Shown: in pieces, positions 1-62,292 of the stretch | Layout: the number at the start of each line of letters is the position of its first letter | How positions within the stretch are numbered: the first letter of the stretch is position 1 | Source: Takakia lepidozioides | Lineage: Eukaryota; Plantae; Bryophyta | Length of the DNA: 64,000 nt | Reading direction: 5' to 3' | NCBI GenBank assembly: GCA_030704615.1 | Contig: CM060731.1 | Location: 63,736,001 to 63,800,000 of the forward strand | Program-made: the position numbers and the translations under genes | Notes under the pieces: model-generated | Databases searched by the model: none | Told to the model about the DNA's origin: nothing | What the model saw: the letters and a program-made list of their open reading frames with translations, nothing else

Positions 1-534
1 TGCGGTTTTGAGGGGCGTAATGATTTTATTTTTAGCTCTATTTTGTTCTGTGACATCAAGCTTTGCACCACTACATCAATGCAAAAAATGGGACAAAAAA
101 AAAATGGAAAAAAAATAAGTGTGTTTCTAGGGTCACTTTTACAGAACTCTCTATGAAGAGCGCATGAAGTTGAAGATAACTCAACTTTGGAATGCAAATG
201 AGAGAACAAAATCTGGTTATGGGTCCAAATGACTTTTGTTTACTCCCAAATTTTTCACGCACATTGCATATGCTATCATTAAGCATATGGCTTGAAAATG
301 GAATAAAAAAAAAAATCATCTGCAGGCGAAACACAATTTTCCGTCTCTATGACACGTAGTTGCGTTCAACACCATAATGACCCATTGAATCAACTTGGTT
401 CAAGCTCATATTTGGTTCACATGTGCATAAGTATGTTTAGATCACATATGCAAAGTTGCAACCCACACGAGCAACAAGAAAAAATTAACATCAATCGATT
501 AATCGGATGTATACAAAGTACATCATGAGAATAT

Positions 535-2217
535 CTACAATGCCCATCTACGCGATCCCTGTCTCAAAGGAACCCTATTTCTATCATACACATCCCACTC
601 ACACTGTAATCGGAGGTCCCAATCATCTCGGGAGAACTCGTATGATGCAAATAGTTCGCTGCCAGCCCTAATAGTCCTACTAGCACATGTAATCACAAAC
701 ATGTGCATCCCCTCACAGTATACTGACGTATGACCACAAAAGCTCTCATGCCCATCGCTTCGCTCGTCCCATACTACATTGGTTCTCCTAGGATGACCAA
801 AAGAACTATTGACCAGCCCAGCAACATTGCCGAAGATGTCGGGGACACCATCACAAAATATGATCTCAATGGGAGACAACCCCCGTCTACGTACATCCTG
901 TCCGTTGACACACAAAATGTAGGGTAGGATGTATGGGGCTTCGAGGCGGTACGGAACTCCGCGGAGGTGTAGTATGGACCGTAGTAGGGAAACAAGTCCA
1001 CCATGTTGTTTCTCCGAGGAGGAACCACAATATCATTGACCGTGAATAAACCCCGACCCATAGCAAGGTCTGTAGCGGCTCTCACAACATACCGTCTCTC
1101 CCAATACTCGAACTCCACATTTTCTTGGATGGGGGTGGGAGGGTCGAGATGATTCCCCCAACAACGAGGCTGGACGGTCCTTAGTAACATAGTCCTATGT
1201 GCTTCCCATCGGGGGTGAGGATCCGGCTCAGGCCGCCCAAGCCGAAGGGGAGGAAACCTAGGGCGAAGCCGACCCCTCCTACAGGTTCGGGGGGCACATG
1301 CACGTGGAGGTGGAGGTGGAGGTGGTACTGCTGGCGGAGGAGATGAAAGTGGAGGTGGTTGAGGATGTAATGTCGGAGGTGCAGCCGGGGGTACAACGTC
1401 CGGATCAGGTACAACCGGAGGTGGATCAGGCAAAGAAACAGACGGGAGGGGGGGGAGGCCACAATAAGGGGGACCGCCTGAGGAAACTGGAGGTGGTGGT
1501 GGGGGGGGGGGGGGGGGTGGGCCTGCTCGTCGCCGGCCATAACGCCTACGACACCTATGATACCCCTCGACCCTACACATCTCATCTACGTGCTGCTGGG
1601 GGAACCAACTGGTCACATCGGGCACATGCTCTAGCACAAATTCTGCAAGTAGACCGGCGCGAAATGCCTCATGTGCAATGTGATTGCGAGCTTGGGCATC
1701 AAGTCGTGGCTGCAATGTGCGTAGTGAATGACGCATCAATACTTATGTCGTAATTTTGATTCATGTATGCTTACCAATCATACTATATTATTAGATAAAC
1801 CTAAATGTACCTTGAATGAATGTTAATGAGAGGGGTGGGAAAAACACTCACCTTTGTTCTTGTAATGGTTTTCGACAACATGCGATCGCCGCCTCGGTGG
1901 TCTGGTGCCGCCCGGCGGTATCCGTTCCCAACATTAATGCACCAACACTCAATCCTGTTGGGGGGGGGGGGGTCAAAGGTGGACGTGGTTGGACGGGGCA
2001 ACCCGCGGCGCGCCCGACTCGATCCCGGAGTGTCAACATCCTCCGCATCACATGAAAATTGGCCCCGATCCCTTCTACGATTGTGCCCGACAACCTGTAT
2101 TGGATCAGGTGCAATGGGTGCCTCCTCGCCATGAAAAATGGTCGCTCTAGGGCCACAATCGATATGTGGTACTACCTCCCCATCCTCGAGGGAGACGGGT
2201 CGATGTTTCCTCACCAT
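535..2217 (-). pseudogene. SET-domain (lysine methyltransferase-like) gene with Pro-rich N-terminal region; one frameshift near 945
   Basis: ORF 774-1739 gives the N-SET motif (RRYVVRAATDLAMGRGLFTVNDI...LFPYYG). After a frameshift, ORF 535-915 gives the C-SET motifs (GNVAGLVNSS...TNVVW...CASRTIRAGSELFASYEF), matching GxGLF, GNxARFINHS and RDIxxGEELxxDY. A probable upstream exon lies at ~1852-2217. Confidence 0.72.
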
Positions 2218-2629
2218 CCCATCCTAATTAACACACACCACCAACACTTTCATTTCTCAAAAACCGTTGGCAAAAAACCCCTATGCCTCAGCCTTGGGGC
2301 TTTCAAAATTGGTCATCAAAGGAGGAGCATCCCTATGGTGCTAGAGCCCAAGACAATAAATCCTTCCTCTCTTTCTATCTTCAGGATGCTCACACTATGG
2401 AAAATTTTGTTGAGACCCAGCGCTTTGCGTTTATCAGATTGAACCACATTTTGGGTATGTGAATCCTAATTACACCGTTTATCCTTTTAACCCCAAGACC
2501 GACAACCAAAACCGCCAATCCAAAACCCAGCACCATAAAGAAAAGAAAACACCCTAACCCAGTACCATATGAAAAAATAAATAAATAAAATAAAAACTAA
2601 GAAACCCAAAAGGCCCTAAACCCTAAATC

Positions 2630-2880
2630 TAGAAAGGCCGGCCGTCGCCTCCTGCGACACCTTGGCATCGCATTGGACGACGAGTTTTCTTTTCTTTTTT
2701 AACCTGGGGATCGCACCCCACGACGGACAGCCATCGCGGGGGCCGACGTGTTTTTTTATATTTATGGCCGGGGGTCGCAAGAAACGACGGCCAGCCGTCG
2801 CAAACTTCACTTTTACATTTCAGAAAAAGGGCGGACATAGGCGTGCGACGGCCAGGCGTCACACGTGGGCGCCGTGCCCT
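2630..2880. repeat. Internal cluster of CACTA-type subterminal motifs (cgtcgc/gcgacg)
   Basis: Same short GC-rich motifs, in both orientations, as in the 8500-9086 array; lies upstream of the SET gene. Confidence 0.5.
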
Positions 2881-5800
2881 TTTTTTCCCTAAGTGCTTGA
2901 AGCATCTCTTTCCCCTCCCTTTTTCATTTGTTCTTTGGGAGAGAGGTAGTTCAGAGAGTGGGGTTTAGGGTGGAGGAGAAACGCACCTGCTGTTGAGCCC
3001 GAGGTGGTCGCAAGGCCCCAAGGAGTTTGCCCCAACGCCGCTCCAACGCCCAAGGTAAGCACCGCCTCCTCCCTCACTTTCTGTCTTTTTTTCTTGCCCT
3101 AAGCACGGGCTGATGTCTCTCTCCCATGTGTGGTAGGAACGTCGTACAGAGGCGCGACCTAACGAGCTGAAGTGAGAGAGAGAGCCGTGGTGAGTGGGGG
3201 AAAGACGCCCTGTAGCGGTGGGGACCCGCGCCGCTGGCAGCCGCGATAGCACCGCAGCAGCTCGCCGCGCCAGCTCGCTTCAAGCACCAGCAGCAGCAGA
3301 GGTACGTCAGGGAAATTGCACTCTCCCTTTCCTCTCTGCTTCTATTTACTGTTCAAAGGTAGTCTTCCTGCCCTGACTTTAAATTTAGGTCTGGTGCCAA
3401 GAGTGGGATAGACCCTTGAGCGCATCCATGATGTCCTCCCCCATGTCACAGACTGGAAACAGGTTCAAGGAAGTTTTCTTCCTAACTTCATTGTCATCGG
3501 ACAATTTTCTGGTAACAGACATGACTTTGGACACTACACTCTCGAAGTTAGGTTTATCCAGCAAGGTCAAGACTTGCGGGTCCAGATTCAGATCCTTGAG
3601 AATCTCTTTTACTCTCTTCTCCCAGGGCTCACCCTGTTTGATAGGGCGGTCATGTTTCCAAGATATAGAATCGATTAACTAAGGATATCTGGTGTTGGAC
3701 ATATGTTGCAGCTGAACCCACCATCTGACCTTGAATTTAGGGTGTCGGGAGCTTAAAAGAGAGCAGCACAAAAGAGAGGGAAGATATTCATGTCATGTCA
3801 AGACATAGACAAGACTTAGTAAAAGTCATTGTCAAGAAAAATGACATAGCAGCCTCATTACAAGGCATTGTCAAACATCTCCTTACATGTACAATCCCAG
3901 AAAAAAGATCCTTAAATTACAAGGTATCCTTATATCATCATGTTAACACTTCCCCTCCATAAATAGTTCATCTTAAATAAAAGAGACTGGATTTCAAAGT
4001 TCTTGAAATCATAGGGTGGGAGGGTGGGGTCTTCTAAAAAAACAAACACATATCATGAGCATGTAGGGTTCTGAAGAATATATGCACATTTGCATACAGT
4101 CAATCAATCAAAGTCTGAACCACTTTATTTAAAACATACTGAGTTTTAAATAAGAGTTGTACGTGTTCCAGTGGCTTACAACAACCAAACAGAGGGCAAA
4201 TGTTGTGATGATCATACAAAAACCCGTAAGTCATTACCATGTCACATTCCCAATCTCTGGGGGGAGCTTAAGAATACAGTTCGTAATCAAAAAAGCCCTG
4301 TAAAAATACTGGCTTGGTAATTCTTGGGTTCAAAAAGCTTAAACAAGTATGTTGTAAGCTCAACAGGTCTTTGAGAAAACCATTCCAGCAAGCCTAAGAG
4401 TGAGAACTTTGATGAAAACAATTCCCTATTACAGCTTTAAAGGACTTGTATGTTCCTAAAAGCACAAGCTGAACTAATTGTACTTCCATAAGTAGATGCA
4501 CGGCTATGGTATGTATCCCAGGGCCTTATCCAGTCACTCTGCCAAGTTTTAGAGAGATCCTCAAAAATACCAGTCTGTAATCAGGTTATAATCTCCATGG
4601 GGGAGCCTGAAAGAATGTATGTGTTCTTAAAAAGGCTTACCCAATTCCTTACTTAATACATTCTAAACTGGTGAGGCATAAACAACACTGTCTGACTCTC
4701 CAAAAGGCCAGAAAACAGGTCTGGAAAAATGCATCCAATGTCACACTTGCACCACCAAACCCTTGTCATCACAACCAGCCCGAACCTTCACAATAAGGTC
4801 TGATTTCTAGGAGGCCCAGCCCATTTACTTCCCTGACTTAACAGATTTGGTTACCAAGAACCAGAAATCAAAGTAAAGGTTTAAGGCATATCCCCCTTGA
4901 AGCAGCTTTGAAGCAGAAAATTGCAACAACGGCAGCTTGTAGCATATCTTATCCCTCCGTTAGTGAGGATGCGCGAGGTGAATTACAAGATTTCACAGTT
5001 GCTATCCATGTCAGGTATGAGCCGTAAAGCATGCAAAGATCACAGAACCAGCAGAAGAAAGCATAGATGTGACACCACAAAGAACCTCAATCTTTTGTGG
5101 AGTAGGACGCTGCAGTGTTCATCATCTGAATTTGAACGAGCACAACAGAATGCAACGGGAGGAGAGTTGAGGACAGGTTGTATCTTGTAATATAGGCCGC
5201 TTCCCCACCTCCATAACCGCCGCTGCTTCATCAATGAGGAAAAAACGTAGGCAAACACAACAGTATGTCATTTGCCATCGCGGGAGATGAAAGTGTCTGC
5301 CGTCATCGCGCGTTCAAAAAACAAGAACACACCCGTTCGGATCTTGCTGCTCGGGCATTCAGCCGCCATCGAGCATTCGTCTGCCATCGCCCTCTTCCAG
5401 AGAAAAAAACACGCACGATATCGTGCTGTGTCTAGGGCAGAGAGACACTTAAAGGAAAACCACCCGCGATTTCATCCACCATCCGGTATGGATGGTATCA
5501 GACCAGGATGAAAAATGGGCATTCAATAGGTTTAAATCAAAGGAGCATAAACCTAAAATGCATTGAAATGCATATTTGCCTATAAATCATCCATTTATGG
5601 TTATAACAGAAATTTCATCCAGTATGGATGAAACCTTAAAATTTGGGATTAAAAATATATAGTATTTCCAAAATAAGTATTATGGAAAAAAATTGATAAT
5701 CCCAAACAAGTAGTTGGAGAGAAGGAGAGAGAGGGAGAGAGAGGGAGAGATCAGGAACCCCACCCATTTTTATTTATTTTTGTTTCCTGAGCTCTCCCTC

Positions 5801-5989
5801 TCTCTCCCTCTCTCTCTTTCGTGCTCAGTCACTCCCCCCCCCCCCCCACCTTTTTCTTTTCTCTTTGTTGCCCCCTCTCGAGACCCCGAGCACTTGCTGC
5901 TCTCAGCCCCTGACATGCTTGGTTTTTTTTGTTTTTGATCTGGAATGTTCCTAATGAGGCCAACTTGTGGGTTTGCATGACAGGTGCCA

Positions 5990-8234
5990 GCTTATGGGGA
6001 AAGAGAAGAAGTCCCCTGCCCCAAAGAAAGGGGCGGACAATCCGTTTGCTCTGTCGGCACGTGTGACGCGCCAGGGCGTCTCACGGCTAACCAGCCCCGT
6101 CGACAGCCACAGCCGGAGGGCTCGTCTGCCCCCCGAGGCCAATACCCCCCCTCTTGTCCACATCTTGGATGCGCGAGGGGCCGGCTCAGCCAGCTCTCCT
6201 ATTCGGGAGGTTGTTGCTGAGCCAGATGCTCAATTGAGCACACCCCCGGCCACCAAGACGGGTGAAATGTACCTTGGCAAGCACATCACCCGTTCGGGGG
6301 CCCGGTATGGGCACCTTTTGGATGTCACCCCCATAGCGACCCCTTCCTCTGCAGCAAAGGCTGCACTTGCCAAGGCCCAACGTCAGGTTCAAGGGCCTTT
6401 GAAAGCCTCCATTGCCAGCCCATTGTTGTCGATGAGGGAGGAGGAGACGAGGAGGGCCAATGAAGTGGCCAAGATAGCGAAGCGCCTCGAAGAAGTCAAG
6501 CCGGGTGAGGGCTTCTACCCTGATACGCATTTGGGGGGGGGGGGGGAGAGAGGAGGAGGTATGGGCCGGTTCGGAGCAGCCTAGCCGATCAGCGACACCG
6601 CCCCCTAAGCCTGAGCGGTCAGCAAAGAAGGGCCTGGACTACGGGGCGCCGCCACCGGCTATGATCCACATCTGGAATCTACTTCTAGTGGCGCTCCAGG
6701 AGGGGATAGAGCGGGCACTCCGGAAACGGGGACTCCTCCCACATCGGGTGACACCAGGGGTGAGTCGGACAAGCTTGCAAAGGTACAACTGTCGCACCTT
6801 GTTCCATGATTTATTATTTCCTTTGCATGCATGATTTTCTTTGTTGTTTGTTTCTTTTTTTGAATTTGGAGGGGTTATTTGTCTTCAGGAGGCAGCAACA
6901 TGGCTGGCCTCATTGGTGCAGTCCCGTGGGGTTGCCAATGAGGGAGAGCACGTGGTGTTCATGAAGGACCTGAACAACAAAGGTAAGAAGAAGAGGCCTC
7001 GATCTCCCGAGATCCCTTTTACCATCAATGAAGGGGCTGTTGAGGAGAGAGAGAGAAGGGAGAGGGAGAAGGAGAGAGAGGAAGTAGCGGGGAAGGGGAA
7101 GGAGATGGTCGTGGAGAAGGGGAAGGAAAAGAAAAAGAAGAAAAAGAAGTCCCATGGAGAGGGAGGGGTGAGTGTGCATGCGGGGGAGGGCATTGGGGTA
7201 ACAAAGGAGCAGGGGAAGGAGGCTACAAAGAAGGGAGATGGTGGGATGGCCTTGGCGATACAGGACGTGGAGTTGGCAAAGATCGTGGTGCCACCGGTGG
7301 AGGTGAATCGCCATGGTGACCCCTGCGGTGCGTTCTGGGAGGCTATGAAGAAGCCAGCCTTCGAACTCGCATTGAGGTGGTTCCCTTTGCACATCGAGTG
7401 GCTGATCAGCACTTTGGCGTGAAGCGGGCGTATGCCCGTGAGTTAGACCGCCGGTTTCCGGGCAATTGGAGTGACACAAGGATGATGGAGATGGTGGGGC
7501 GAAACTTGAAGGACAGGAGGTACCGTGCCAGACAGATCATTCGGAGGGCAATGGAAAAGGGGGCCATATCCAAACCACCTTATGGAATTACACAGGTTGG
7601 CAAATCCTGAATCATGTCACCTTCCATTTGTCGCATGTGCATTAATGAGGTGGATTCGATGCAATATATGTGTGTAATTCACTAATTGTTGGGGGGGGGG
7701 GGGGTGCATAGGTATCGTGGGATGCACTCATTGCGGGAGAGACTGATGCCGCAAACAAGGCCAAATTTGACCGGGCACATGAAGCAACAACAGTCCGCCT
7801 TGACAAGCACGAATCCACACACAAGTGGGGCGCCGGCGGATCCAAGGGTTTTATCTTGTGATTTGTAAGTCGTACTTCCCTATGGATTTTGTTATGTCTT
7901 CTTTTTGGCTCCATCATCGCGAAGAACTGACTTTAATTTGTGGCATGTGTAGCAACGCGCGTTTGAGAGGAAGCCATCTCCGGTAGAGTACAACTATGCC
8001 AAGGAGCATGGTTGGCAATCCCTCATGAAGAACATGGCCAACACAGAGGGGATGAGTGCACTACAGGGCACTAGTATGGATGAGGTCGAGGGTCATGCCC
8101 AGGGATTGGATGAGAGCTCTATGGGACTTAGGGGAACGTCGTCTCATTTACGTGCTCTGGCAAAGGGCGCGGAGTCATCAGGCTCATCGGATAGCTCTGA
8201 GTCCTCCACTGAGGATGAGGATGAGGATGACTAG
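5990..8234 (+). pseudogene. CACTA TnpA/Ptta-like (Transposase_24-type) accessory gene, spliced and frameshifted
   Basis: Joined pieces read ...RWFPLHIEW/ADQHFGVKRAYARELDRRFPGNWSDTRMMEMVGRNLKDRRYRAR...PPYGITQ|VSWDALIAGETDAANKAKFDRAHEATTVRLDKHESTHKWGAGGSK...; the W..L...K......R....H.xG.GG pattern is typical of En/Spm TnpA-like proteins. Lys/Glu-rich N-terminal part and acidic tail. Confidence 0.55.
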
Positions 8235-8499
8235 TCCTAGTCCATGTAGGTCCCAGGGTCAGTCTACTGAACCTTTGTGAGCTTTTCAGCTCATGTCTTG
8301 TAAATATATTTCCATCTTTCCATCTTCCATCTTATTCATGTGTCGCACCGTCCTCACCCTCGATTCATGCTTGCTCAATTGTGTACCTGCTAACTCAGAG
8401 AAATGGAACTATAAGTTCTCCCATCCCCAAATACAAAACCAGGAAAAAAACAAAAAACCATCCCCAATTCACCCCCAAAATGAACCCCCAACCCCCCCC

Positions 8500-9086
8500 C
8501 ACCAGGCTGCCCTCGCGACTGCAGCACGTCGCCAAGGGCGATGTGTTTTTTGGGCAGGGGCCGCAAGAAGCGACGGTTGGGCGTCGCAAACCCCATTTGC
8601 GGGCAGCAACGCCCGAAAAGCCTCTTCGAGCTACGTCTCGCCGTCGCTGCCCTCCAGCCGACGGCGTTGGTGGGGGCGCCGACGCGGCGTCGCATTTATT
8701 TATTTATTTTTCCTAACCTGATCTGGAGTCAACCGGGTGGTACGCCAAGTGACGCCCGTGCGTCGCTGCCCGCGACTATTGGGCGTGGCACAAAACAGCT
8801 GGAGTCGGTCTCCACCACGCCCGGGCGTGGGTTGTTGCGACGCTCCGGCGTTGCGTTTTTTTTTTTTAAATTTAAGAAAAAAAAAAAAAAAAAAAAGCGT
8901 GCCATCAGCGCGGACGGCCTGAAAAACCGACGTCCGGCAGTCGCGGGAGTTGGGGCGACGCCCTTGCGATTGCAGGGCGACGGCTGGGCGTTGCAAATTC
9001 TGCGCCTCCCGCGTGCCTGAAAAGGGCGTTTTCCCGACGCTGCGGCGTGGCGCGGGCGTCGCAAAGGCCCCCATTTTCCTGTAGTG
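8500..9086. repeat. CACTA right subterminal repeat array and terminal inverted repeat
   Basis: Dense gcgacgcc/ggcgtcgc motifs ending at TGTAGTG (9080-9086). Confidence 0.8.
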
Positions 9087-10350
9087 AACACTTCAGTGCG
9101 CCCTGCAAGACGAATCTCATGAGTCTCATGACAACAGTCCTCTCAGGAGACCACTCCAATTGCCTCTCCAGTAGACTCTACAGACTCGCAAGTAGGCTGG
9201 GTCCTGGTCCCACTACACTCAGCCGACTCGGCAGAGTCACAACTCAGCAGACTCAGAAGACTCATCACTCAGCAGACTCGGCATAATGAGCAGACTTAGC
9301 ATAATGGGCAGACTCAGCAGACTCGACAGACTCGACAGATTGAGCAGACTCAGCAGACTTGACAGATTGAGCAGACTCAGGTCTGAGTGGGCAAACCGAG
9401 CAGACTGTCCTCATTCAAAAGACTAGGCAGATTTGCCAGACTGAGCAGACTGAACGGACTCAACCAGCGAGAGGCAGGTGTGAACGTAGTGACGTCATTC
9501 AAAAGACTGGCCCGACAGAACAGACTGGGTATGCGAGATCTTACTCCTCCACAATCGGAACGATTATATGATGGCAGTCTTTTATGTCTTTGCCGAGCCG
9601 AGGGACGCTCCAGCAAGAATGCAGATACTCCACTAGCCTTTCCCGTGGCCCGTCCCAATGTGTCATCATATGAGACCACGTTGAGGCTGGCAGAAGAGCA
9701 ACAGTACTTGAGTACTTCTCCTCAACCGTCTTCTCATAGAAATGACACCACAGCTCCAGCATTCTATCTGTGCACTCCGACTCCACCGTCTCAAGTGGCT
9801 TCAACTCCGGAGGCCCGATGGAGCACTCATACCGGGGGTCGCCTTCATAAAAGTGAACCATGCAATTGCCGGCCGCGACATTCCGTCGCAGGGCTGCGGC
9901 AAAACGAGAACCCAACCTGCACACAGACCACGGCCTTGTGTGAAAACCCATATACGCAACAGTCTGAGCGGACTAACTCCATTCAACAGACTGCCCATAC
10001 CGAGCGGACTGAGCGGACTCACACTTTTGAGCAGACTGGAGTGACCAGACTCAGCAGACTGGGAGGACTACTCACTGGTGCATTTGTCACTGAAGAACCA
10101 CTTCCTTGTCCGTATCCAATGCCATTTTGCGGTCCTTGTTCATGAAGACAACGGACTTGCCTTTCTTCGCAGGTTTCTTGGCAACAGGACCCTCCCAAAT
10201 TTCCTGAGTCTGCTCCACGACAGTCCTCTTCTTTGCTCTACTTGTGCCCATGGATTCGGCGACTACTGTGGCCGGGTTCGATTCAGCAGACTGACGAAGT
10301 GATGCGGTCTTGCTTCGCAACACGACTGTGTCTGCAGGCTTGTTCACACT
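9087..10350 (-). pseudogene. Ulp1/C48 SUMO-protease-like TE gene, N-terminal and central exons, truncated by the CACTA end
   Basis: Exon ...TDRMLELWCHFY...KDIKDCHHIIVPIVE ends at a GTAAG donor (~9544). Candidate His exon (HYVHTCLSL, ~9465-9495). Exon SLLERQLEW...LQGALKC runs straight into the CACTA TIR. Confidence 0.5.
9220..9460. repeat. Degenerate ~9-bp tandem repeat (agcagactc/gacagactc)
   Basis: Many consecutive cagact units; more copies at ~9960-10070. Confidence 0.85.
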
Positions 10351-10830
10351 TGCAGGACTATATTGGCAGCCTCACGGGTCGCATGCGTTGAACTAATCCA
10401 TGCATCTGTTGGCGTTGTAAGTAAGCCACATTTTCTAGTGAGACATATATATATATATATATTCAATATTTAGGATGAAGAGTTTTATTGTAAATTAGTG
10501 AGGCATTTTTTGTGTAATAATTTTTTATTCACTACATTGTAGTGAAAATAGTAGTGCACATACAATACAAATCCGAAACACCAAAAGAATTTGGATGGCT
10601 CAAAACATTTTAATTTCAATCAATGTCAAGAGTGTTTGCAAAGATCAAGTATAGCCACATTGTGTAGATCACCTACATGAGGGATTTTGCTCTATCCATA
10701 GTAGATCAAATCTTAGTCAAGTCATCAAAATCTGGTCGTAGGCTCTGTGGAAAAAAAATGCATTTGGACTTGGATGACATTGGACCCTTGGGCCAACGGC
10801 ATAGGCATACCCTAGAGGTTGCACTTGGGC

Positions 10831-12036
10831 TAGGGAATTCCAAAAAGGCCTTGATGTGAAATGCATTGCAATTCACTTGATCACCCCCCTAAAAGTGCAC
10901 AATTCAATTGAACTGCTAAAACCAGCTTGAAAACAACCCTAATTTGCAATTCAATTGAATTGTCGGCACACGATTCAATTGAATTGCAATCAATTGAATT
11001 GTTGACTGCAATTCAATTGAATTGCTAGTTGGCAATTCAATTGAATTGCTGACTACAATTGAATTGAATTGAATTGTAATCTAGAATTTTTAACTTATTT
11101 ATGTATATATTATATATATGTACATATTTAAATTATACATACGTATACAAAAGTATAAGCTAAAAATACATGTTGCCCATCTATTCTTGCTGTCCGTCTT
11201 GCCCGTGGTAAGGTTGAGCCTGAGATAAGCCTAAGGGAGAGCGAGAGAGGGAGAGAGAGAGATGAAGTCACGAAGCGCTTGTAAAAGCAGGATTGTCTCT
11301 CTTTGTGGATGTTGGTGCCAATATATGGCTATGTACATATACCAAACATAATACCAATGTATGAGTATCAACGTGTAAGAGTTTGATATATTAAACTTAT
11401 ATGGAACACACATCCCAACTTCAACATGAGCCTTTGTAAGGGTATCGAAACAATATTATTTTTGATAATTCTCAAGATGAACATATTTCTTGTTTTCTTT
11501 GTCCTGGGCCAGATACTAGTGTTAGGGGACTACATGATGATGCAGGGGAAGCCTTTCATCAATTGTCAGGTTTGATTTTGTCTGTTTCTTTCGGAGCAGC
11601 CATGTTTCTTTTGCCAGTGAATCACAGGAAGCTGCTAATCTCTCTCCGTCTCTGGCTCTCCTTTTCTAGCTGAGGCTGAGGGTGGCTTCACAACTCCACA
11701 ATTTCCTCAAGGGCACAAGAAAGAGGGCCAACAAGAATAGACGGGCAACATGTATTTTTAGCTTATATTCTTATATGTGTATAAGTATAATTTGAATATA
11801 TATACATACATACATACATACATATATATACAGAAATAAGTTAAAAATTATAGATTACAATTCAATTGAATTGCAGTCAACAATTCAATTGAATTGTCAA
11901 CTAGCAATTCAATTGAATTGCAAATTAGGGTTGTTTTCAAGCTAGTTTTAGCAGTTCAATTGAATTGCACACTTTTAGGGGGGTGATCAAGTGAATTGCA
12001 ATGCATTTCACATCAAGGCCTTTTTGGAATTCCCTA
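10831..12036. mobile_element. Non-autonomous hAT-like element with ~300-370 bp inverted arms
   Basis: Termini TAGGGAATTCCAAAAAGGCC...GGCCTTTTTGGAATTCCCTA; arms ~10831-11190 and ~11728-12036 contain CAATTCAATTGAATTG palindromes; approximate 8-bp TSD acttgggc/atttgggc. Confidence 0.75.
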
Positions 12037-12434
12037 TTTGGGCCTCACATAAGAGACGCACTTGCATACATAGGAGATTGCACTTGGGCTTAGATGACAC
12101 TTGACACTTGGGCCAACGGCACAGGCTACCCTAGTTGTAATAGCATGATCAATCTGCTAGCTCATCTAAGTTAGTATTGACCCGTGTCTCCAGAGTTCCA
12201 CTTTGTAGGGAATGGCTATTTTTTCCTGGTTTTGCTAATTTGATGATCAGGGCAACTTGACAGTCCCCTTCCCTTGCAACTTAAAAGAAAAAGAAAAAGA
12301 AAACTTAAAAGAAAAGATTAATAAAGATTCAATAGAAGAAGAAGATGAAGAAAGATGAAGATGATAGATTATCGAAATGAACGTGCACTAAGTGGTACGT
12401 TCATATATCATCCACTCAAGTGCTTGTACCTCAG

Positions 12435-12667: not shown

Positions 12668-14485
12668 ATGTCGTCAGTGCAGCTGTTGAGCCGTCTGCCT
12701 GCACCTAAGCACACGATAGAACCAGGTTATGATGTGTCCGCAGATCCATGGTACCAGAGGCGCATAGAGGCGTCGAAACCCCAGGCTCTTACACAGTTCA
12801 AGGAGCCACGTCCTTATGGAAAGCGGGCGGGGTTTGTTCCTCGGAAAGTGGAAGATTTTGGAGATGGAGGAGCGTTCCCGGAGATTCATGTTGCCCAGTA
12901 TCCTTTGGACATGGGGAGGAAGGAGGAAAGGATCGATAGCAAGATCCTTCCGGTGAGTGTGGATGCTGAGGGAAACATCGCCTTCGATGCCATAGTAAAA
13001 CAAGCAGAAAATGCATCGAAGACGGTGTTTTCTCAGCACAAGGAACTCATCCCCAAGCTCCCTAATGAGGCAGATACAGAGAGGCCAGGGGAGGAAGAGA
13101 TTAAAGAAACTACGGACAGAACAAAGGCTTCCCTCGAGAAGATTGTGGGTGCCAGGTTGAGCGCAGCGCAGCCTAAGAGTGTACAATCTCAGTCAACTGT
13201 TCCTTCCTACATCAAATACAAACCTTCTCAGCAATCAGCAGCATTCAACTCGGGGGCAAAAGAAAGGATCATTCGTATGGTAGAAATGCCAAAGGATCCT
13301 CTTGAACCCCCGAAATTCAAACATAAGAGGGTTCCGAAGGCCTCGGGCTCCCCCCCGGTCCCTGTCATGCATTCTCCACCGCGGCCTGTCACAGTTAAGG
13401 ATCAACAGGACTGGAAGATACCCCCTTGTATCTCAAACTGGAAAAATCCTAAAGGTTATACAATTCCTCTTGACAAGAGGCTAGCGGCTGACGGGAGAGG
13501 TCTTCAAGAAGTCCAAATCAATGACAACTTCGCAAAGTTGTCGGAGGCATTGTATGTTGCGGAACAAAAGGCTCGAGAGGCAGTGGAAATGCGGTCCAAA
13601 ATTCAGAGAGAGTTGCAGCTGAAGGAAAAGGAGAAGAAGGAGATGGAGCTCCGAATGCTGGCTCAAAGGGCTAGGATGGAGAGAGCAGGAGGGGGTGCTC
13701 CAGGAGTTGAAAGAGCTGCAGTTCCTGGCAGTGGTGAGAGAGGTGGTGGTGTTAACCTTGATAGAAAGATGGATGACTCTGAGGGCGGTAGACTGGGCTG
13801 GAAAGAAGACAGAATCAAGGAGACCAAGGAAGAGAGAGAAGAAAGGCTTAAGCGTGAGGCACTGCGAGAAGAGAGACGGAGGGAGAGAGAGAGGGAGCGC
13901 AGGCTTGAGGCCAAAGATGGGCAAGTAGGCAAGAAAAGCAAGATCACTAGGGACAGAGACAGGGACATTAGTGAGAAAATGGCTCTTGGAATGGCAAGTA
14001 CTGGTACTGGTGGTGGGGAAATCATGTATGATCAGCGGTTGTTCAACACAGAGAAGGGCATGGAATCAGGGTTTGCTGCAGATGACTCTTATAATGTATA
14101 TGACAAGGGATTGTTCACCTCTCACTCAGGGCTTGGTGGGCTCTATCGGCCCCGTAAGGATAACGACGCGGAGGTGTATGGGGGTGCTGATGAGCAGCTG
14201 GACAAGGTTCTTAAGACAGATCGATTTCGAGCTGATAAAGGATTTGCAGGGACCACAGAGCGAGCTGGGCCCCGTGACAGGCCTGTTGAATTTGAGAAAG
14301 ATGCAGAGGAGGCAGATCCTTTTGGTTTGGATCAGTTTTTGACAGAGGTGAAGAAGGGGAAGAAGGGAGTGGACAGAGCCGGAGGGGGAGGCACTATGCG
14401 AGCAAGTGCCGGGTCAGGGCACAAGGAGAGCTATGAGGGTGGATCGAGTCGGAGCCGTGTGGAGTTTGAGCGTGGGGGTCGGTGA
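12668..14485 (+). CDS. SKIP: SNW/SKI-interacting protein (spliceosome and transcription cofactor), intronless, 605 aa
   Basis: FGDGGAFPEIHVAQYPLDMGR, DPLEPPKFKHKRVP, IPPCISNWKNPKGYTIPLDKRLAADGRGL (SNW motif), YDQRLFN, DPFGLDQFL. The first ATG is at 12668; the ORF-track start at 12551 is TTG. Confidence 0.97.
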   Translation: MSSVQLLSRLPAPKHTIEPGYDVSADPWYQRRIEASKPQALTQFKEPRPYGKRAGFVPRKVEDFGDGGAFPEIHVAQYPLDMGRKEERIDSKILPVSVDAEGNIAFDAIVKQAENASKTVFSQHKELIPKLPNEADTERPGEEEIKETTDRTKASLEKIVGARLSAAQPKSVQSQSTVPSYIKYKPSQQSAAFNSGAKERIIRMVEMPKDPLEPPKFKHKRVPKASGSPPVPVMHSPPRPVTVKDQQDWKIPPCISNWKNPKGYTIPLDKRLAADGRGLQEVQINDNFAKLSEALYVAEQKAREAVEMRSKIQRELQLKEKEKKEMELRMLAQRARMERAGGGAPGVERAAVPGSGERGGGVNLDRKMDDSEGGRLGWKEDRIKETKEEREERLKREALREERRRERERERRLEAKDGQVGKKSKITRDRDRDISEKMALGMASTGTGGGEIMYDQRLFNTEKGMESGFAADDSYNVYDKGLFTSHSGLGGLYRPRKDNDAEVYGGADEQLDKVLKTDRFRADKGFAGTTERAGPRDRPVEFEKDAEEADPFGLDQFLTEVKKGKKGVDRAGGGGTMRASAGSGHKESYEGGSSRSRVEFERGGR

Positions 14486-21119: not shown

Positions 21120-21730
21120 CCGTTTAAAAGTTTGTGTTGGAGACTTTGATCATGGAACCCTGCCACAACGCACCAATCTGGTATAGTATAGATCCACACC
21201 TTCCTGCATTTGGTCTGCACTTACATTTCTGTGTACAAATGTGAACTAGGTTTATCGGCATTTTGGGGACAATACCCAACCATACATGTTAAAGTATGAA
21301 GCCCTTTACAATGAACAAGATGTCTAGGTGGTGCAAGCTTCGGGTTATCCCACCCAAGAGACTTCTTGATAAGCATGTTTAACATAATTAAACTCGATAC
21401 ATGCAACCTACAAACCATTTGCAAATGCAAATGGAACAAAATGTCACCTCTTTCAAGTGCACACAAGCCAAAAATGCATCGGGTAGCATAAAACTCTTCC
21501 ATTTTCTGTAAGCATGCGACGTCGATATCTGCTACAGCCACACCCACTGTAACACTTGCCTCTATGAACTTCTCTGCACCCTCTACCAGTTTGGCTTTCC
21601 CTCTCGCAACCCACTTTCATCCTACCTACCATACTTGAGGCCACGCTAAAGATAGGAAACAACTACTCACACTGCCTCTCGCTCTGAAACCACTAATGAC
21701 ACAGGCTACTACTGGTGTCCTTGGCACCAT
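21120..21730 (-). mobile_element. Replitron-like HUH endonuclease transposase remnant
   Basis: ASVTVG..DID...GLCALERGDILFHLHLQMV (HUH) ...LNMLIKKSLGW...LHTLTCMVGYC (Tyr motif), then a frameshift to FVHRNVSADQMQEGVDLY. No helicase domain follows; stops upstream. Confidence 0.72.
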
Positions 21731-24117: not shown

Positions 24118-27100
24118 TTACACATTTCGCGAAATCACATCTTCAAACTGGTCCAACAGATCCCCACCGGATGTGCTGCTACCACCCATGATGTCCTCAG
24201 CCTGCTTGCTACTGTACATGTCGATATAGCGCCGTTGTTTCGAGCCAGGTGAAGTTTGGACAGCAGCCTTGTGCTTGGGAGACGTAATGGGAAGGAGAGA
24301 GAGAAGAACTTGCGAGACATCATACATGGAGGGTCGTGCAGTAGGTGACTGTTTGGTACACAGCAGAGCCAATTTTAACGCCTTCTCTAAAGAATCCATA
24401 TCTGGGCATGTACCTCTAACTTGGGGATCTATGGCAGCCAACCAAATATTATTGTCGATCTTTGACCTCACCTGCAGGAAACCAACCCTTATCAGCACCA
24501 GCATTTGACACTTTTAACATCTACAATACACAGCTGCCAATCTCCCGGCACTTTCATCTCCAGATTTTCTTCCCCATTTCCGATGCATGAATCTTGAAGG
24601 AACCATATTGAGAGGCACATACCCAATCAAGCAAGTTTACTTCATCCTCCACAGCCTTTTTGCCCATGAGAAGCTCCAGGAGAACAATTCCAAAGCTGTA
24701 GACATCTGATTTCTCATTCAGCCGAGATGTCTGAGCATACTCTGGGTCAATGTAGCCAATGGTGCCCAATACGTAAGTCGAAGTATGTGTTCTAGCTGGC
24801 TGGATGTTCTTGGCAATGCCGAAGTCTGCTAATTGCGCCTCCATGTTTGAATCCAGGAGTATGTTGCATGATTTGACATCTCGATGGACCACTTGTGGGT
24901 TGCAATCATTGTGCAGGTAAGCGAGTCCCTGCGCAGCTCCCAATGCAATCTTGAGCCTTGTGATCCAGTCTAGCTTGATTTTCTTGATTTGCCCTGCCAG
25001 ACAGAAGACTACATGAGTGAGCCATTTCTAGGTCCTGGTACACTCTAATCAATCTTTTACCTTTCAGACATGGCTATTCTGATGTGTCTGTCACACAAAG
25101 ATTAGCAAAGCAAAACAAACAGTTATCAAGTATTTCTTGGACTAATGTTACCCTTCTCTCCCAAACCACCTCTTCAGAGAAGGCAATTACCATGGAGAAG
25201 ATCATACAAGCTGCCGTTCTCCATGAAGTCATAGAAAAGGAAATTGCCGGCTGAAGACATGGAATAGCCACAAAGACTGACAATATTCCTGTGCTTGATT
25301 TTTCCAAGTGTCTTCAACTCTGTCTCAAATTCATGGATGTTCTGAGGGTAGTAGTTGAAAAGCTTCTTGATTGCAATAGAGTGTCCATTCTTCAGGGTGC
25401 ACTTGTACACTGTACTGGAACCTCCCCGTCCCACTACATACTTCTCACTTAGATTCTCTGTGATGCGCATCATCTCCTCGTATGTCTGAGGGGCCATGCC
25501 CAAATGAAATGATACCATAGTTGGTGGCCCTGCCCACACACAAAGCCATTGCTGTAATGAGATTATAGCTATTAGGTCTATGTCTAAACGGTCATTGAGG
25601 TCAGGGTCGCGAAATATTCAGACTGGTTGGGTATGCTTGAACTTGATAATTTCTGTCAAGTTGAATGTTTGCACCTCTAAGCAAGGAAGACATTGACAAC
25701 TTTTTGAGTGTAGCTATGATGCAAAAATAATGAAAGCAAACTATATCTTTACAATTCCAACAAATCAGGATTCAGCAAACATCTGGTACCTTGTGATGTT
25801 TTGTTGGAGGCTTTCATAAATGCCCGAGGTTGGGTATAGCGAATCGCTCCAAATATTATGAGAGCGAGCAAGCAAATTGCAGAGATTGCAATGCCCCATG
25901 TAGCAGATGCTCCTAATGTACCTGTGGTACAAGTCACTTAGATAAGGTTGAACCACTTAACTAAACTTCACAGAAGTTAAAATCGAACACTACAAGTGGT
26001 AAACTTGCCAACAAAATGTTGATTTCTGTTTGGTTAAGCAGGCAGTATATACAATGGTCATGCTTTCTACTTTGGTCATTCTCTAGATTCGCATCTCAAT
26101 ACAAACTTATGCACCTTTACTTAACCCAATCTTGTTCAAGCAACTCTACCATGTTAACACCAAGATGCTGTTCAAAGAAAACTGGAATCTTAGGTATATG
26201 AGGAGTGTGGAGGCATACCATTGCTTGAGCCAGAGGATTGCTTCAGGCCTGTCTGGCACACATTACTGCTAGATGCACATAGCTCTGGATTCCCTACAAA
26301 GCTGGTCATCACGATGCTGAGTGTCAACTTATGAGCCAAGTATTACCATGTTTTTTTCCATCTAGAGGTGTAAAGAATGCCCAATATAGCCAAATTTGTA
26401 AGGATTAATGGAGACCGAAACCACCAATACATGCTAGGTTAGTTGCAACATATATCAGAATACATGAGAATATATGATCCTGAAGTACTGCGATCATCAG
26501 AGTTTTATCACTATGGTAACCACATCCATACAAGACTTCTCGGGAATTTGGAGTATATGCATGCGGCCGAAGAAACAAACCTGCTGGGTGGGAACCTTGA
26601 GAAGTTTTGGGCAGAAGGGATTGGGCCTGATAACTTGTTGAATGACAAATTCCTGCAATTTGCATCTCCAGCTTGTCAAAACCCCCCTTTGATAGATTCA
26701 ACAAGTATCGATACGACGTATCGATTGACCATCTTCTGGTGGCTTGAACATACTCTAAAGAAAGCCAAAAAAATCATTCTTGAAGCAGGGACTTACAATA
26801 ACTTCAGGCTGAAGCAGTCTTCAAGTTCCACAGGAATTTCACCAGATAAACTATTGTTGCTCAAGTTCCTGTAAGTAGTGACATTCGTCAATAAGTTGTG
26901 CATATGTCAACATACTGGAAACATCTACAAGTCACAGCTGGCAGCAAAGAAAATAAAACTAGAGCAACTTACAGCAAGTTCAGTTCCTGAAGCTGGCCAA
27001 GTTCTGGAGGTATTGCCCCATATAGCATGTTGTGTGACAGATCTCTGCCACACAGAAGAATGCTAAGTCAAGAGAATGGAATACACATTAGTGACACATA

Positions 27101-30100: not shown

Positions 30101-33100
30101 TAGATCCCTGCACCAAAAAGAAACTAGCATTATCTAACCAAAATTCTTAGAACACCACAGTTGTAAAGCTAACACAAAATACACAGCTAGGGTATACAAT
30201 GGGAAAGGACAAAGGACCCACAGTATCTGGAAAGATGTGCAATTTCCAATGCCGTCCGGTATTGGTCCAGTAAGATTATTATCTCGGACATTGCTGCAGG
30301 TACACAGAAAAATCAAGAGTCAGTACCATATCTGCCCTCAAGGAGATGTAAGGTGCTAGAATATGACAAGCTTCAAAGATGTACTACATGAAGTCATGAG
30401 GATTCACTGCTGCACAGGACTCTGCATTATGAGCCAGTGATGTGTAGTTCTAAAGACTGATTATAAGGAAAACCAGAATGCTCTCCAGGTCTCCTCATGA
30501 AAGCAGCAAACCCAAAAGCCCACGCTTACAAGTAGGAGAGCTCTGTCAGTTGACACATGTCAGAAGACAATCCTCCTGTGAAATGATTTGCTTTCAACAT
30601 TCTGCAAGATGCATTAGGTCAGAACAGGACATTAAAGAAGGAAAGGGAAGCGGCTTAACCACTGAAACCAACACAAAAGGTTGCATTCAAGCTAAGAACT
30701 TCTGATCTTCTAGGAGTCCTCCTCAGTGAGGAACATGTTGCTCTTGTCCAGTAAGAGAATCTGTGACCTCCTCAAAGATCGTATGAAATACTATGCACAT
30801 TGTATCAAAGGAAGTTGTAAAAGCTGACATTTCAGAAGTTTTAATATTTCAGCCTTCCAATGGGAGATAGCCATTACTCTTCCCAACACATCTACAGAAA
30901 TCAAGACACTAGCTGGACTCAAGCTGAACTGCAGAACATCGACAACCAGAGCCAAACAACATATCCAATATGGCTAGATGCTTACAGATATTGCAGGGAC
31001 TCGCTCCAATAAATTAAGGAAGGTATGGAACCCGATAGGTGATTGTACTGCATGTCTCTGAACAGAAACATCCAAAATCACATTATTTGAAGGTATCAAA
31101 TGATATCCATCATATTTGATGGCAATAGATTGACTGCTCCAGAAACAGCAGGTATCATGCCAGGATGCTGAACACTGAAGAAACAGAGCTCTGTTCTTTC
31201 ATGGCATTACACAGTTGCATGTACTGTCAGTCTCAATGAGTTCAAGCAGGCTGAACAGTGGGGGGATGCTTACAGGTGTCTTAAGTTTGAAAGACCTGCG
31301 AAGGAGGATGGTATAGGTCCAGTGAGCTGATTCATCCTCAGGTCCCTACAAGAACCCACAGGGCCATATTCATGAGCTGATCCCAGTTGATAACTATTAT
31401 TGCCAAAAGAAGAATTTTATCAAAAAATAGTACTAAAATGAAAGACATGGCAGGAAGGTGCTACTTTGAGCAAACCTTCATTTGCTGCACTCAACTCACC
31501 TCTAGCACCACATTGCACAAACCTAATACAAGTGATAGTACATATGCATGGATACACTTGTAAGTATCTAGATATCTCCATACAGATGATTCAAGGTAGC
31601 CAAAGAAGAAGTCATGAGAAGATTCAATCTCTGGTTAGAACAACTTTCAGAAGAACACCAGAAATGGCAAAGAAAACAAAAACAGGGAAGAAAAAAGAAA
31701 CAAAAAGGACCGATACACACGGACACAAAACAACAACCAGTAACACTGATTTGTCATGGACCTGTGAACTAAGAATTGCAATACCATGACAATACTGCTC
31801 AATGGCAGGACAGTGACTGCCCACAATAGTTGAGAACATAATAACTTACAAGACCTCAAGCTGTTGCAGTTGGGACATGACGTAAGGAATTTCACCAGTC
31901 AGAGCATTCCCCGATAGATCTCTGTCAAGCAATCCCACCCACCACTAGGCATCAGGGCTATTTCCATTACAGACAGACTGTAGGACTCCCAACTTCACCA
32001 AATGGCCAAGTCACTCCAGGAAAGTATTTACCCGATAGACAATGAGAGTAACACGCACCACAACAAAGCCTATCCTCAGAATAATTTTGAAGAGTAGTCT
32101 AAGGTGCTTTGTTCGTTGATTTTGACTGAACTAGAATGCAGGTCGACTGCATGGTGGACAAAGAAAACAGGAAATCAAAAATTATTGATAACTTAAGAGA
32201 GAACTGTGTTTTGAGTCACTAAAATCAGCCTTCAAGGTGTGTGGAACTGCAAATGAAATTGGGCTTGAAGGTACCAAGACAAAAGGGTCCAAAACTTACA
32301 GGGTAGTAAGACTTGTGCAGTTGCTGATCTCTGTTGGGATCTGTCCAGAAATATTATTCTCACTGAAGTCCCTGCAAGTTCAAGCGTTGTCCGTTATGAA
32401 AGTTTTCCATATCATTCTCAAAGCACCTCCAATAATGTTATTCTGGTGCCAAAACTACTTGATTCATAACAAGTGGGTTCAATACTCCAGGAAGTCCGTT
32501 CGTGCAAGAACTCAAAAAACGTTCCAGTTGAAGCTGTGCCTATTTGACAAGCGAGCACTGCTTTTCAGATGGAAAGCTTTTTATGGCTTCAACAAACTAT
32601 TGGTAAAGTGCAGATACCACAGCTCACTCACAACGTTTGGAGACTGCGCAATTTGCCTATCGATGGAGAGATCTCTCCCGTGAGAGTAAGCTGTGACAGA
32701 TTCCTGTGACATGAAGACCCAGATTAGGAGGACCCGTTGTCGTGACTAGAACAGGACAATGCTCATTACTCGCAAAATAATTAGCTGGCCTTAGTAAGCA
32801 TGCCTTAGCTCCAGTGTCAAAGTTTAGGATCTTCTGGTACAATAGTGCTATCGGAGATATGCACTGCTTCATTACGATATGCATTGTATAGAGGTCTCCT
32901 TAAAGGTGGTGGAGTTTGCCATGAAGTAGCAGTAAGCTTAAGACGCCATATTGAGAGGCATACCTAGAGTGTTACTTGATATCCGTTTACTTTATTTGAC
33001 CTGCGGCACTGTATAGAAAAGTAGGGGGTCTATGTGATTTTCGAAACACTTACAGGCTTGTTACTTGGTAGGTGACATTGTCGCATGTCACACCTCTCCA

Positions 33101-33357
33101 CAGACATGGAGACTGACTGCCCTCCGTCCAATCGTAAAGCTCATTGTCACCATCCGTAAAGGCCTTTTTTATTTCCATCAAGGCGCTGACTGCCAGACAC
33201 GTCGTGGAGAAATTGATGACCAAGTCAGGCATCCCAAACTTACCAAGCAGACACAGAAATAGAAAGCGAGCGACTTCCCTCCGTCCACCGTAAGCTCTAA
33301 GAGTTAATGGGACGAAAAGTAGAAGATGATAAGGACAGTTGGCTTCCCCACGACCAT
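24118..33357 (-). CDS. ERL: ERECTA-family LRR receptor-like kinase, ~27 exons; start codon not resolved
   Basis: LRRNT exon ([20 protein letters not shown]); about 20 one-LRR exons of ~72 bp (e.g. [47 protein letters not shown]); FVGNPELC; TM exon; juxtamembrane [29 protein letters not shown]; kinase [37 protein letters not shown]; C-terminal FEDVISRNV*. Confidence 0.93.
29496..29676. repeat. Intronic tandem duplication (~90 bp x2)
   Basis: catcactgatgtatacc...gcgacataacccaaaaaat repeated from 29496 and 29586. Confidence 0.9.
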
Positions 33358-34918
33358 ATCACTCACTGCCCTTCGTCCGGAGAAACTCTAATTCTGAGAT
33401 GTGCGTGCACACTGCACACGGTCGATGACGGAAGTCACCAGACAGTCAGCGCTTGAAACAACTCAAAAACGAGAAGGGTTTCAATTTAACACCTTGCCAT
33501 ATGCGGAACCGTATAAGGGATAAACAGAAAAAGTGTCCAGTAATATTGCAGGATCAACTGAAACTGATCCCTTTGTTTACGAACTGTCGCTTGATTGCTG
33601 GCATAAGCACGTACCTAGAAAAACTGCAAGTTAATTTCTGTCAAAGTCGGTCATACTGAGCTCTATCCTCATGATCCCTCAACAACGAAGGCTTAGCATA
33701 GCTTTGCAAACAGTGTTAACGATCAGTGTTGGTCGAGGGCTCGCAGTGGTATGGTAGACGGGACGAGGACATTGAGCGTCTTTGCTAATGTGGACCTTTC
33801 ATTTTCCTCCATCCTCCTCGCCTTTCTAGTACCATCATCATCGTACAGACCGACACCGTCTTGAATTATTTCTGAGATCTTAATGCGCAGCTTAAGCCTC
33901 AGAATATAATTGTGGCATTTAGAGAACTACCGGTGGTCTCATTCAAGATGAATGGTAGAACGTAGATTGCGTCATTCCGAAAAAGGGGCAAGCGGACTGC
34001 GTGTTAATGCAGGCATTGTATAGAGAAACCTTCACCAGAGACATCCGACAATGCATTCGAATAGGAAAGTGATCTTGAGAATGGGTTGACGGTATTGTTA
34101 GGTAAGAAAGCTAATTGTACGTGACTTTCTGCCAAGGTCAGGGACGTTCCACAACACATAAATCTTAACATGCAGAATCGCTTCACTCGGCGGGACGAAG
34201 AGCGGAGCTCTGAGCGTTCCTCAGCCAAAAAGACGATTCCAGCCAAGAGGAGCTATAAACGAAGAGAAAGGGAACGGGGAGAAGGGCCCCTCACCTTCAT
34301 CCGCCAAAGACACAGCTGAACACAATGAGCTCCACGGCGCAAACGTAAAGAGAAGGACGCAAAACAACAGCGACATGCGAGGCCTTCCTGCCATTGTTAA
34401 AAGCTCTTCGGTCGACTTGGCAGCTCCAAGTTTTCCGACAGTTCACCTGCACCTTTCTCGTTCACTCCTAAACCGCATTTGTAAATTGGTTCGCTTTGCA
34501 AGTTTGCATTCCCGATACTGTGTCGTCCTCGCGGACCCCTTCTCGCTCAGAAAAGTGTGGCCTTTGGCTCGTCGGGTGGGGTTGAAAGGGAAAAACAAAC
34601 GCCACTATAAAAATGTAGTCTGCAGGTGAGAAACGGCACTGCCACGACGGCTATCTATGAAGCCATTATGGAGCGAAAAGGAATAGAAACACACAGCTGC
34701 ACAGGTAACTACCAAGCTGTTCCGAGAGCGGGCAAAGACCGCACATTCCATAAACCGCGATGGAAGCACAAATTTAATAAGTAGGAGTCCACAAGATAGT
34801 CGAGTGGGAGAGGAAAGGTTGACATCTACAGCAATGCCGGGTGGAGAAACAAACATACAGTTGAAGAGCTACGTCGACAGAAGAATAGAGCAAGGAAAAG
34901 GACCAAACAGTGTAGAAG

Positions 34919-58330: not shown

Positions 58331-58532
58331 GGGGTGAGACCAGCTGCAGTGTTCAGACTAGCAGCAACACTCTGTGAGAGTGGGAGGTCACTTCATCTTC
58401 TGCGGAGTTAGTGGAAGGTGTAGTGGCAGAGGGATCCTCGGATTTGAGGGTCAAGACTGCCACGGCAGCGCCCTGGCAAGCTGCAGCTGCCAGATTGACG
58501 GAGCTGCCAGCTAGGCCAGCCTTGAGCGCGCC

Positions 58533-62270: not shown

Positions 62271-62292
62271 AGATATACATGAGGATTCAGTT

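Follow-up and report, generated by a model that had tools for sequence, protein, structure and literature searches.

A decayed SET-domain gene in a very high-copy repeat of Takakia lepidozioides and its probable link to a CACTA transposon

We analysed a 64,000-nucleotide (nt) stretch of the genome of Takakia lepidozioides (Bryophyta; GenBank assembly GCA_030704615.1, contig CM060731.1, positions 63,736,001 to 63,800,000), called the window here and numbered from its first base. Near its left edge, on the minus strand at 535-3288 and within a very high-copy repeat, we found the decayed remains of a gene with three exons that codes for a small protein with a SET domain. The gene belongs to a real, divergent family of stand-alone SET domains, and an intact protein of this family is predicted to be an S-adenosylmethionine-dependent lysine methyltransferase, a catalytic activity that we infer. 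A CACTA transposon end was found at 9086, 5.8 kb from the SET gene, and we consider it fairly probable that the two belong to one element, in which the SET gene would be an accessory gene.

Gene model and identity of the SET family

The gene model was built from the sequence and from contigs of sequencing reads. These came from X1, a DNA run of the organism, from X5, which is also DNA, and from X8 and X9, which are only guessed to be RNA; the contigs show no strand, summed depth is not a copy number, and parts of the window left uncovered in X8 or X9 were not used as evidence. The 5' exon has an in-frame stop 30 codons ahead of its junction and no ATG after that stop, so it is untranslated. 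The product of exon 2 (P0004) is without a recognisable Pfam domain, and a zinc-finger pattern was not seen in it. Exon 3 encodes a helical part, a Pro-rich linker and the SET domain, the last of these in two frames of the minus strand: the motif GRGLFTVNDIVVPPRRNNMVDLFPYYG sits in frame 888-1709, and GNVAGLVNSS and IRAGSELFASY both sit in frame 538-885. A tblastn search found no second SET copy within the window.

The two halves of the domain match the family profile in the same order as its columns. Because columns 83-178 and then 187-266 match collinearly, the frame switch is confined to 897-873, and because only these 24 nt, with a run of five G, separate the matched halves, we read a one-base frameshift and ruled out an intron in its place. 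A TAAT insertion behind 948, present in about 5% of X1 depth and also in X8 and X9, was considered as the true reading and rejected: it would merge the frames and replace the conserved HTSYPTFCVSTD stretch. This insertion is a second change and not the ancestral state.

To the gene itself, the initial annotation had assigned the limits 535 to 2217, three SET motifs and one frameshift. We found all three motifs on the minus strand in the frames given above, the limits fit an ATG at 2217 and a stop at 535-537, and the frameshift is a -1 change. Our model adds two canonical introns, of 142 and 763 nt, and a 5' untranslated region (UTR) exon.

We found support for SET identity at the level of the family. 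Residues 175-271 of the first frame match columns 83-178 of the family profile (A3) with an hhalign E of 1.7e-17, and in the second frame residues 5-87 align with columns 187-266 (E 1e-15), scores well past what chance would give. A full HMMER search of the N-terminal half against 1.84 billion representatives (phmmer) gave 12 matches, the best being P0005 (E 7.1e-14, 46% identity), and several of the matches have both SET halves in one frame; the C-terminal half, searched against longer proteins, gave no match. Scanned singly, 21 of the 27 family members match Pfam SET (PF00856) at E<=0.01, and P0026, from the liverwort Calypogeia fissa, does so at 34.1 bits (whole model, positions 1-105). The profile search returned 30 proteins, half of which (15/30) carry a precomputed PF00856 match. 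The sole named match among them is an 'unnamed protein product' of C. fissa, the others coming from short metagenome or run contigs, and none of the 30 is a named plant SDG-type protein. A metagenome scan gave 31 loci, of which L001 alone (1,104 nt, 40% identity) belongs to the family, the remaining 30 being weak matches at 24-31%.

The fold was examined in P0026, so that the result describes a family member and not the broken protein of the window. Its AlphaFold model has a pLDDT mostly above 87 over about 130-335, and Foldseek gave 306 matches in the PDB at E<=0.001, the best to SETD8 (3.1e-7). Those listed are all SET lysine methyltransferases, including SETD8, MLL1, LegAS4, SUV39H2, NSD1, G9a and DIM-5. 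In a PDB profile search the nearest solved protein was LegAS4, a weak match (E 0.014-0.017) in which the whole domain is aligned and YINFS stands opposite the family's YINS. Hence, the initial assignment to SET is upheld by Pfam, fold and profile searches at family level, and the family is a real, divergent, stand-alone SET family.

SET enzymes bind their cofactor and catalyse methylation through motifs named GxG, NHS and ELxF/YDY, the last with its Tyr. Across the family we found GxG, LFPY.GP.Y, a Trp, DG and N-S to be invariant or nearly so. The Tyr of EL..Y is kept in members that reach the C-terminus, although truncation of some sequences keeps it out of the nearly invariant columns. The window copy has GRG, N-S-S where NHS is expected (I-N-S in the family) and the Tyr of SELFASY. 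No Cys clusters lie before or after the domain in P0003 or P0001, and no pre-SET, post-SET, AWS, CXC, SRA, PHD or other Pfam family was found on the window pieces or the 27 members. These results agree with the initial description of a SET domain with NSS for NHS and no Cys-rich flanks. They are also consistent with its placement outside the standard plant SDG classes, a placement judged here by domain content.

Copy number, decay and transcripts

We found 4,915 short X1 contigs on window positions 1-3000, with identities of at least 99% in 1421, 95-99% in 1839, 90-95% in 1441 and lower in 214. Cover is unbroken over 1-2600 at a summed depth of 50k-200k, against about 53 for a perfect-match contig in the low-copy stretch 10473-10756. 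A single-copy gene is ruled out by the order of magnitude of this depth and by the number of distinct contigs. Hence, the stretch 1-2600 is repeated at very high copy number and does not represent a host gene present once, in line with the initial view of a transposon-borne gene, and the repeat unit continues past the window's left edge.

The window copy is dead, having the frameshift and substitutions at conserved residues. At least 25 coding sites were found at which nearly all other X1 copies differ from the window, and the residue is changed at 21 of the 25; the 25 are a sample, with 108 further sites beyond those listed. At four of them the majority letter restores a family-typical residue (WERR to WGRR, DLAMGRG to DPAMGRG, IEII to IEIR and CDGVP to CDGDP). 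At most sites the window has T and the majority C, or the window A and the majority G, which is a C-to-T decay pattern. Read in this way, the substitutions suggest decay from a constrained ancestor, which would speak for the reading favoured here. The frameshift is common to all three spanning contigs of the other runs (X5 725-948, X8 836-1040 and X9 527-1435), which align with no gap.

Contigs without introns were found in X8 and X9. An X9 contig joins 1711 to 1857 over intron 2; the 23 letters in between are a variant exon end, which was also found, together with intron 2, in X5 DNA. For intron 1, X9 record 23 joins 2140-2217 to 2982-3275 with the intron absent, and loose ends of X8 and X9 contigs at 2225 and 2223 run on into the same upstream sequence. 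The X5 DNA contigs keep the introns, at 1896-2543 and 2914-3205 for the borders of intron 1 and at 1672-1856 for intron 2. It is likely that some family copies are transcribed and spliced.

Fragments of the repeat also occur elsewhere in these runs. A 78-nt piece inside the SET exon (1078-1155) and an 81-nt piece downstream of the gene (185-265) were found in X8 and X9 contigs of 325-1096 nt with unrelated flanks on both sides, and they may be repeat fragments taken up in other transcripts. In a 419-nt X9 contig, 66 nt match exon 2 (2104-2169) at 97% and are followed by 353 nt of unlike sequence; this contig may represent a paralogue or an alternative joining of exon 2.

The CACTA end and competing origins of the SET gene

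A true CACTA end is present: ggcccccattttcctgtagtg stops at 9086, with ten CGTCGC or GCGACG sites in the 550 nt before it, and of a target-site duplication (TSD) only the right flank, aac (9087-9089), is visible. The motif GTCGCAA occurs six times in the 64 kb, and five of the six lie in two clusters, at 2774-3007, in the 5' intron and exon of the SET gene, and at 8583-9058, in the subterminal region of the CACTA end. X1 depth is alike over 1-2600 (46k-90k), 2901-3200 (33k) and 5901-8600 (32k-68k), and it dips to about 8k over both motif regions (the 2640-3012 cluster and 8601-9200). Between the two motif regions lies a second spliced gene, divergent from the SET gene, in which X8 contigs join 6169-6670 to 6884-7036 and 7306-7593 to 7953-8202. 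The window copy of this second gene is frameshifted at 7399 and at the G run 6533-6547, and at 7399 the G that this copy lacks was found in X5, in X8 and in 36% of X1 depth.

Adjacency, motif sharing and rough likeness of depth are the reasons for which we read the SET gene and the end at 9086 as one element, since the window holds no left terminal inverted repeat (TIR), no checkable TSD and no transposase. The initial annotation had proposed such CACTA carriage, with cgtcgc repeats just upstream of the SET gene and a TnpA-like gene divergent from it. Carriage is plausible, with a real end, subterminal repeats and a shared motif, but unproven. The repeats are present at 2640-2880 but lie inside the 5' intron and not upstream of the gene; the divergent spliced gene exists but nothing identifies it as TnpA. 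That the left TIR is not visible was confirmed.

Two further candidate termini were rejected. As a left TIR, CACTATGGAAAAT (CACTATGG) at 2393 was set aside: about two-thirds of X1 depth reads CACCATGG there (C at 2396), and the X5 contig 1896-2543 crosses the site. As the start of an element 8059-9086, CACTACAGG at 8059 was set aside: it lies inside a contig-covered coding exon and its flanks are unlike aac. This 9-mer has three matches in the window against 1.27 expected, and 12 of 100 shuffles reach three.

Several observations weigh against a SET-carrying CACTA element. At three or fewer mismatches no left TIR was found in the window, whose sequence runs off at position 1. No Pfam match to an EnSpm transposase (Transposase_21 and partners) or to a TnpA-like protein (Transposase_24) was found in the open reading frames (ORFs) scanned, namely 17 picked ORFs, 66 of the 89 that start beyond 9000 and reach 95 residues or more, and the exon pieces of the plus-strand gene; this result applies to the window alone, and the element may extend farther left. 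The plus-strand gene also has no relatives and no Atlas lead (best 0.81) that would make it TnpA. The SET gene is separated from the rest by 2.5 kb of other repeats at 3310-5860 (a 0.5-kb copy and 2 kb of moderately repeated DNA), and the sole DNA similarity between the motif regions is a 45-nt match at 80% (2761-2805 with 8547-8591). On the protein side, the C-terminal piece of the window itself reaches only E 0.11 and 13.4 bits against PF00856 (threshold 22.4), and its copy has Phe for the family's invariant Trp besides N-S-S for NHS. On the transcript side, the RNA nature of X8 and X9 is a guess, and one X8 contig (1623-1956) keeps intron 2. Since the frameshift is shared by the X5, X8 and X9 contigs, a large part of the family may be dead, and the SET gene was not needed in cis for amplification.

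Three of these points, the lack of a left TIR or transposase, the unrelated repeats between the two parts and the short DNA similarity, would also suit a SET gene that came from a different high-copy mobile element (a DNA transposon, a Helitron-type capture or a Pack-type carrier) and was brought beside a 5'-truncated CACTA element by nested insertions; SET captures by Helitrons and other superfamilies are described in a preprint (bioRxiv 10.1101/2025.02.11.637652). We regard this origin as rather unlikely, because one short motif is clustered both in the subterminal region and in the 5' intron and exon of the SET gene, the summed depth of both parts and its dips in the motif regions are alike, the two genes stand head to head as in one unit, and, with CACTATGG discounted, 1-3310 showed no ends of any other transposon. 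A pseudogene of a host SET-domain family, outside any mobile element, is very improbable. Canonical introns and a UTR exon are host-like, and the C. fissa genome annotation has a relative as an ordinary protein, but X1 holds thousands of distinct contigs at 88-100% identity, unbroken over 1-2600, both neighbouring genes decay alike, and the 30 profile matches include no named plant SDG-type relative.

Whether the protein was an enzyme is a separate matter from the element that carried it. The SET fold could have been kept as a module that binds histone tails or the transposase, and the replacement of NHS (N-S-S in the window, I-N-S in the family), the absence of a post-SET zinc cluster and the low Pfam scores would fit such a module. 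We think this unlikely, since the family as a whole keeps GxG, the Asn at the NHS position and the EL..Y Tyr. LegAS4, the nearest solved relative by profile and presumably an active methyltransferase, is also without the His (YINFS), and by the title of its PDB entry it was crystallised with a histone H3 peptide.

As part of one CACTA element, the SET gene would be transcribed from an internal promoter, divergently from the second element gene. Because its 5' intron holds the subterminal-repeat motif, the element's own DNA-binding protein could control it. The enzyme would bind S-adenosylmethionine via GxG and the N-S-S variant of NHS, would use the Tyr of ELFASY in catalysis, and would methylate a lysine, presumably on a histone tail, at or near the element. 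Such methylation of chromatin proteins could be to the element's benefit, presumably by helping it to escape or steer silencing. A broader form of this proposal is possible rather than probable: an old land-plant CACTA lineage may carry a stand-alone SET lysine methyltransferase, of a family barely seen by Pfam and with liverwort relatives, as a spliced gene whose 5' intron has the element's subterminal binding motif, and the element may write a histone mark on itself through an enzyme tied to its own DNA-binding protein.

Table 1. Features of the SET gene and of the putative CACTA element in the window
Feature	Positions	Strand	Details
5' UTR exon	~3288-2987	minus	upstream limit not fixed; X9 record 23, X8 record 16 (3090-3288)
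Intron 1, 763 nt, canonical GT-AG	2986-2224	minus	CAG/GTGCGT at 2987/2986; TTAATTAG/G at 2224/2223
Exon 2, 122 codons (P0004)	2223-1852; ATG 2217-2215	minus	ends AAG/GTGAGT
Intron 2, 142 nt, canonical GT-AG, phase 0	1851-1710	minus	AAG/GTGAGT ... TTGCAG/
Exon 3, overall	1709-535	minus	helical part, Pro-rich linker, SET domain; stop 537-535
Exon 3, frame 1 (P0003)	888-1709	minus	helical part, Pro-rich linker and N-terminal SET half (WERRYVV, GRGLF, LFPYYGPYY, CVSTD)
Exon 3, frame 2 (P0001)	535-885	minus	C-terminal SET half (FCDGVP, GNVAGLVNSS, TNVVW, IRAGSELFASY); stop 537-535
-1 frameshift site, 24 nt	897-873	minus	G5 run within 880-887 (C run 880-884 on plus strand)
Region downstream of SET gene	1-534		high-copy; reaches window edge; X1 summed depth 52k-213k over 1-500
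CGTCGC/GTCGCAA cluster, thinner	2640-3012		sites 2643, 2774, 2796-2797, 2844-2845, 3007; SET 5' intron and exon
Nested repeat, far more abundant	3310-3815		X1 depth 375k-383k; loose-end agreement 0.73 at 3310 and 0.62 at 3815
Second gene, spliced, divergent from SET	5994-8234 (ATG 5994, stop 8234)	plus	K/E-rich, acidic tail; X8 contigs
CACTA subterminal repeat region	8500-9067	plus	ten CGTCGC/GCGACG sites, 8527-9057
CACTA TIR CACTACAGGAAAATGGGGG, 19 nt	9068-9086	minus	only window match at three or fewer mismatches; 0.03 expected by chance

Neighbouring features and known transposon-borne SET genes

The nested repeat at 3310-3815 gives the strongest signal in X8 and X9 too, with diverse flanks at both ends, and its minus strand contains a 97-codon open frame. 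Just outside the CACTA end, at 9267-9466 and 9981-10034, a moderately repeated stretch has runs of a 9-nt unit (GCAGACTCA-like, 15 copies), and within this stretch a 252-codon open frame without a Pfam family was found at 9387-10142. A unit resembling a miniature inverted-repeat transposable element lies at 10728-12090, with 156-nt inverted arms (10831-10986 and 11881-12036, 94% complementary) and AATTCAATTGAATTG repeats, and is high-copy in X1 (about 102k over 10701-11000).

Farther along the window, a Ty3/gypsy-type retroelement lies on one strand at 56410-63998 (plus), with the order C5 DNA methylase (59501-60142, PF00145 E 4.4e-13), reverse transcriptase and RNase H (60584-62332), integrase zinc finger and core (62257-62906) and PHD finger (63415-63708). 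Two intact intronless genes were found, for a SKIP/SNW protein of 605 codons at 12668-14485 (plus; PF02731, E 3.4e-74) and for a pentatricopeptide repeat (PPR) protein of 834 codons with E, E+ and DYW deaminase domains at 39710-42211 (minus); neither protein had an exact match in the protein collection searched. Protein kinase exons and a leucine-rich repeat N-terminal domain on the same strand (24557-25617 and 33053-33358, minus) are probably one receptor-like kinase gene with long introns. At 21224-21616 (minus) there is a weak match to the Replitron HUH endonuclease (PF21859, E 2.1e-5, 25.3 bits, cut-off 28.5).

Maize En/Spm is the type CACTA element; it makes TnpA and TnpD and has no SET gene. 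The window resembles it in its CACTA terminal repeat, several hundred bases of short subterminal repeats and spliced internal genes, and differs in having a SET gene and no demonstrable transposase or TnpA homologue.

Other transposons have been described with SET genes. In Plavaka, of the EnSpm/CACTA superfamily, in the red alga Bostrychia moritziana, the accessory gene PAG2 joins a DNA methylase (PF01555) to SET (bioRxiv 10.1101/2025.02.11.637652). Both are CACTA-superfamily DNA transposons with a Pfam-SET gene beside other genes and with repeats adjoining the accessory gene, if the window element is as we propose, whereas the window SET stands alone after a Pro-rich linker and comes from a land plant. 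HarbingerS elements and MuDR families of Phytophthora are also reported to have SET histone methyltransferase genes (Kojima and Jurka 2014, Repbase Reports, via PMC12730594); these too are cut-and-paste transposons with their own SET gene, an element-carried chromatin writer, but of other superfamilies and other hosts. The closest analogue of the proposed role is VANDAL (MuDR) of Arabidopsis with its anti-silencing protein VANC (bioRxiv 10.1101/2025.02.11.637652; PMC12730594), a DNA transposon of plants whose accessory protein targets the element's own epigenetic state. VANC, however, does not belong to the SET proteins and works through loss of DNA methylation at specific sequences, whereas the role of the window SET gene is proposed. 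According to these texts, earlier examples of transposon-borne SET genes come from HarbingerS, oomycete MuDR, Helitrons and red-algal Plavaka. Among the texts reached by a full-text literature search, none describes a SET gene in a land-plant CACTA element.

Compared with solved SET enzymes (LegAS4, entries 5czy, 8sr6 and 8swi; human SETD8 and MLL1), the family has the same fold (Foldseek E about 1e-6, probability 1.00), and with LegAS4 it shares the lack of His in the NHS position and of Cys-rich flanks. For P0026 the TM score by target is 0.56-0.64 with SETD8 and MLL1 and 0.24-0.25 with the longer LegAS4 chains. Identity is only about 20-23%, and the family differs in an N-terminal flank of its own (a beta hairpin and helix, residues 134-162) and in a long insert between the halves.

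To our knowledge, few transposons carry epigenetic writers or erasers. The known examples comprise VANC in VANDAL, TET/JBP in fungal elements, DNMT in retrotransposons and SET in HarbingerS, MuDR and Plavaka, and each is a direct handle on the contest between element and host silencing. To these the window adds a gene model with two verified introns, intronless contigs in two runs that are likely spliced, a SET fold for the family and a motif link to a CACTA end. If our reading is true, the family would offer a small, assayable protein of about 500 residues, and a SET enzyme in a very abundant land-plant DNA transposon would extend this contest to plants beyond the seed-plant models.

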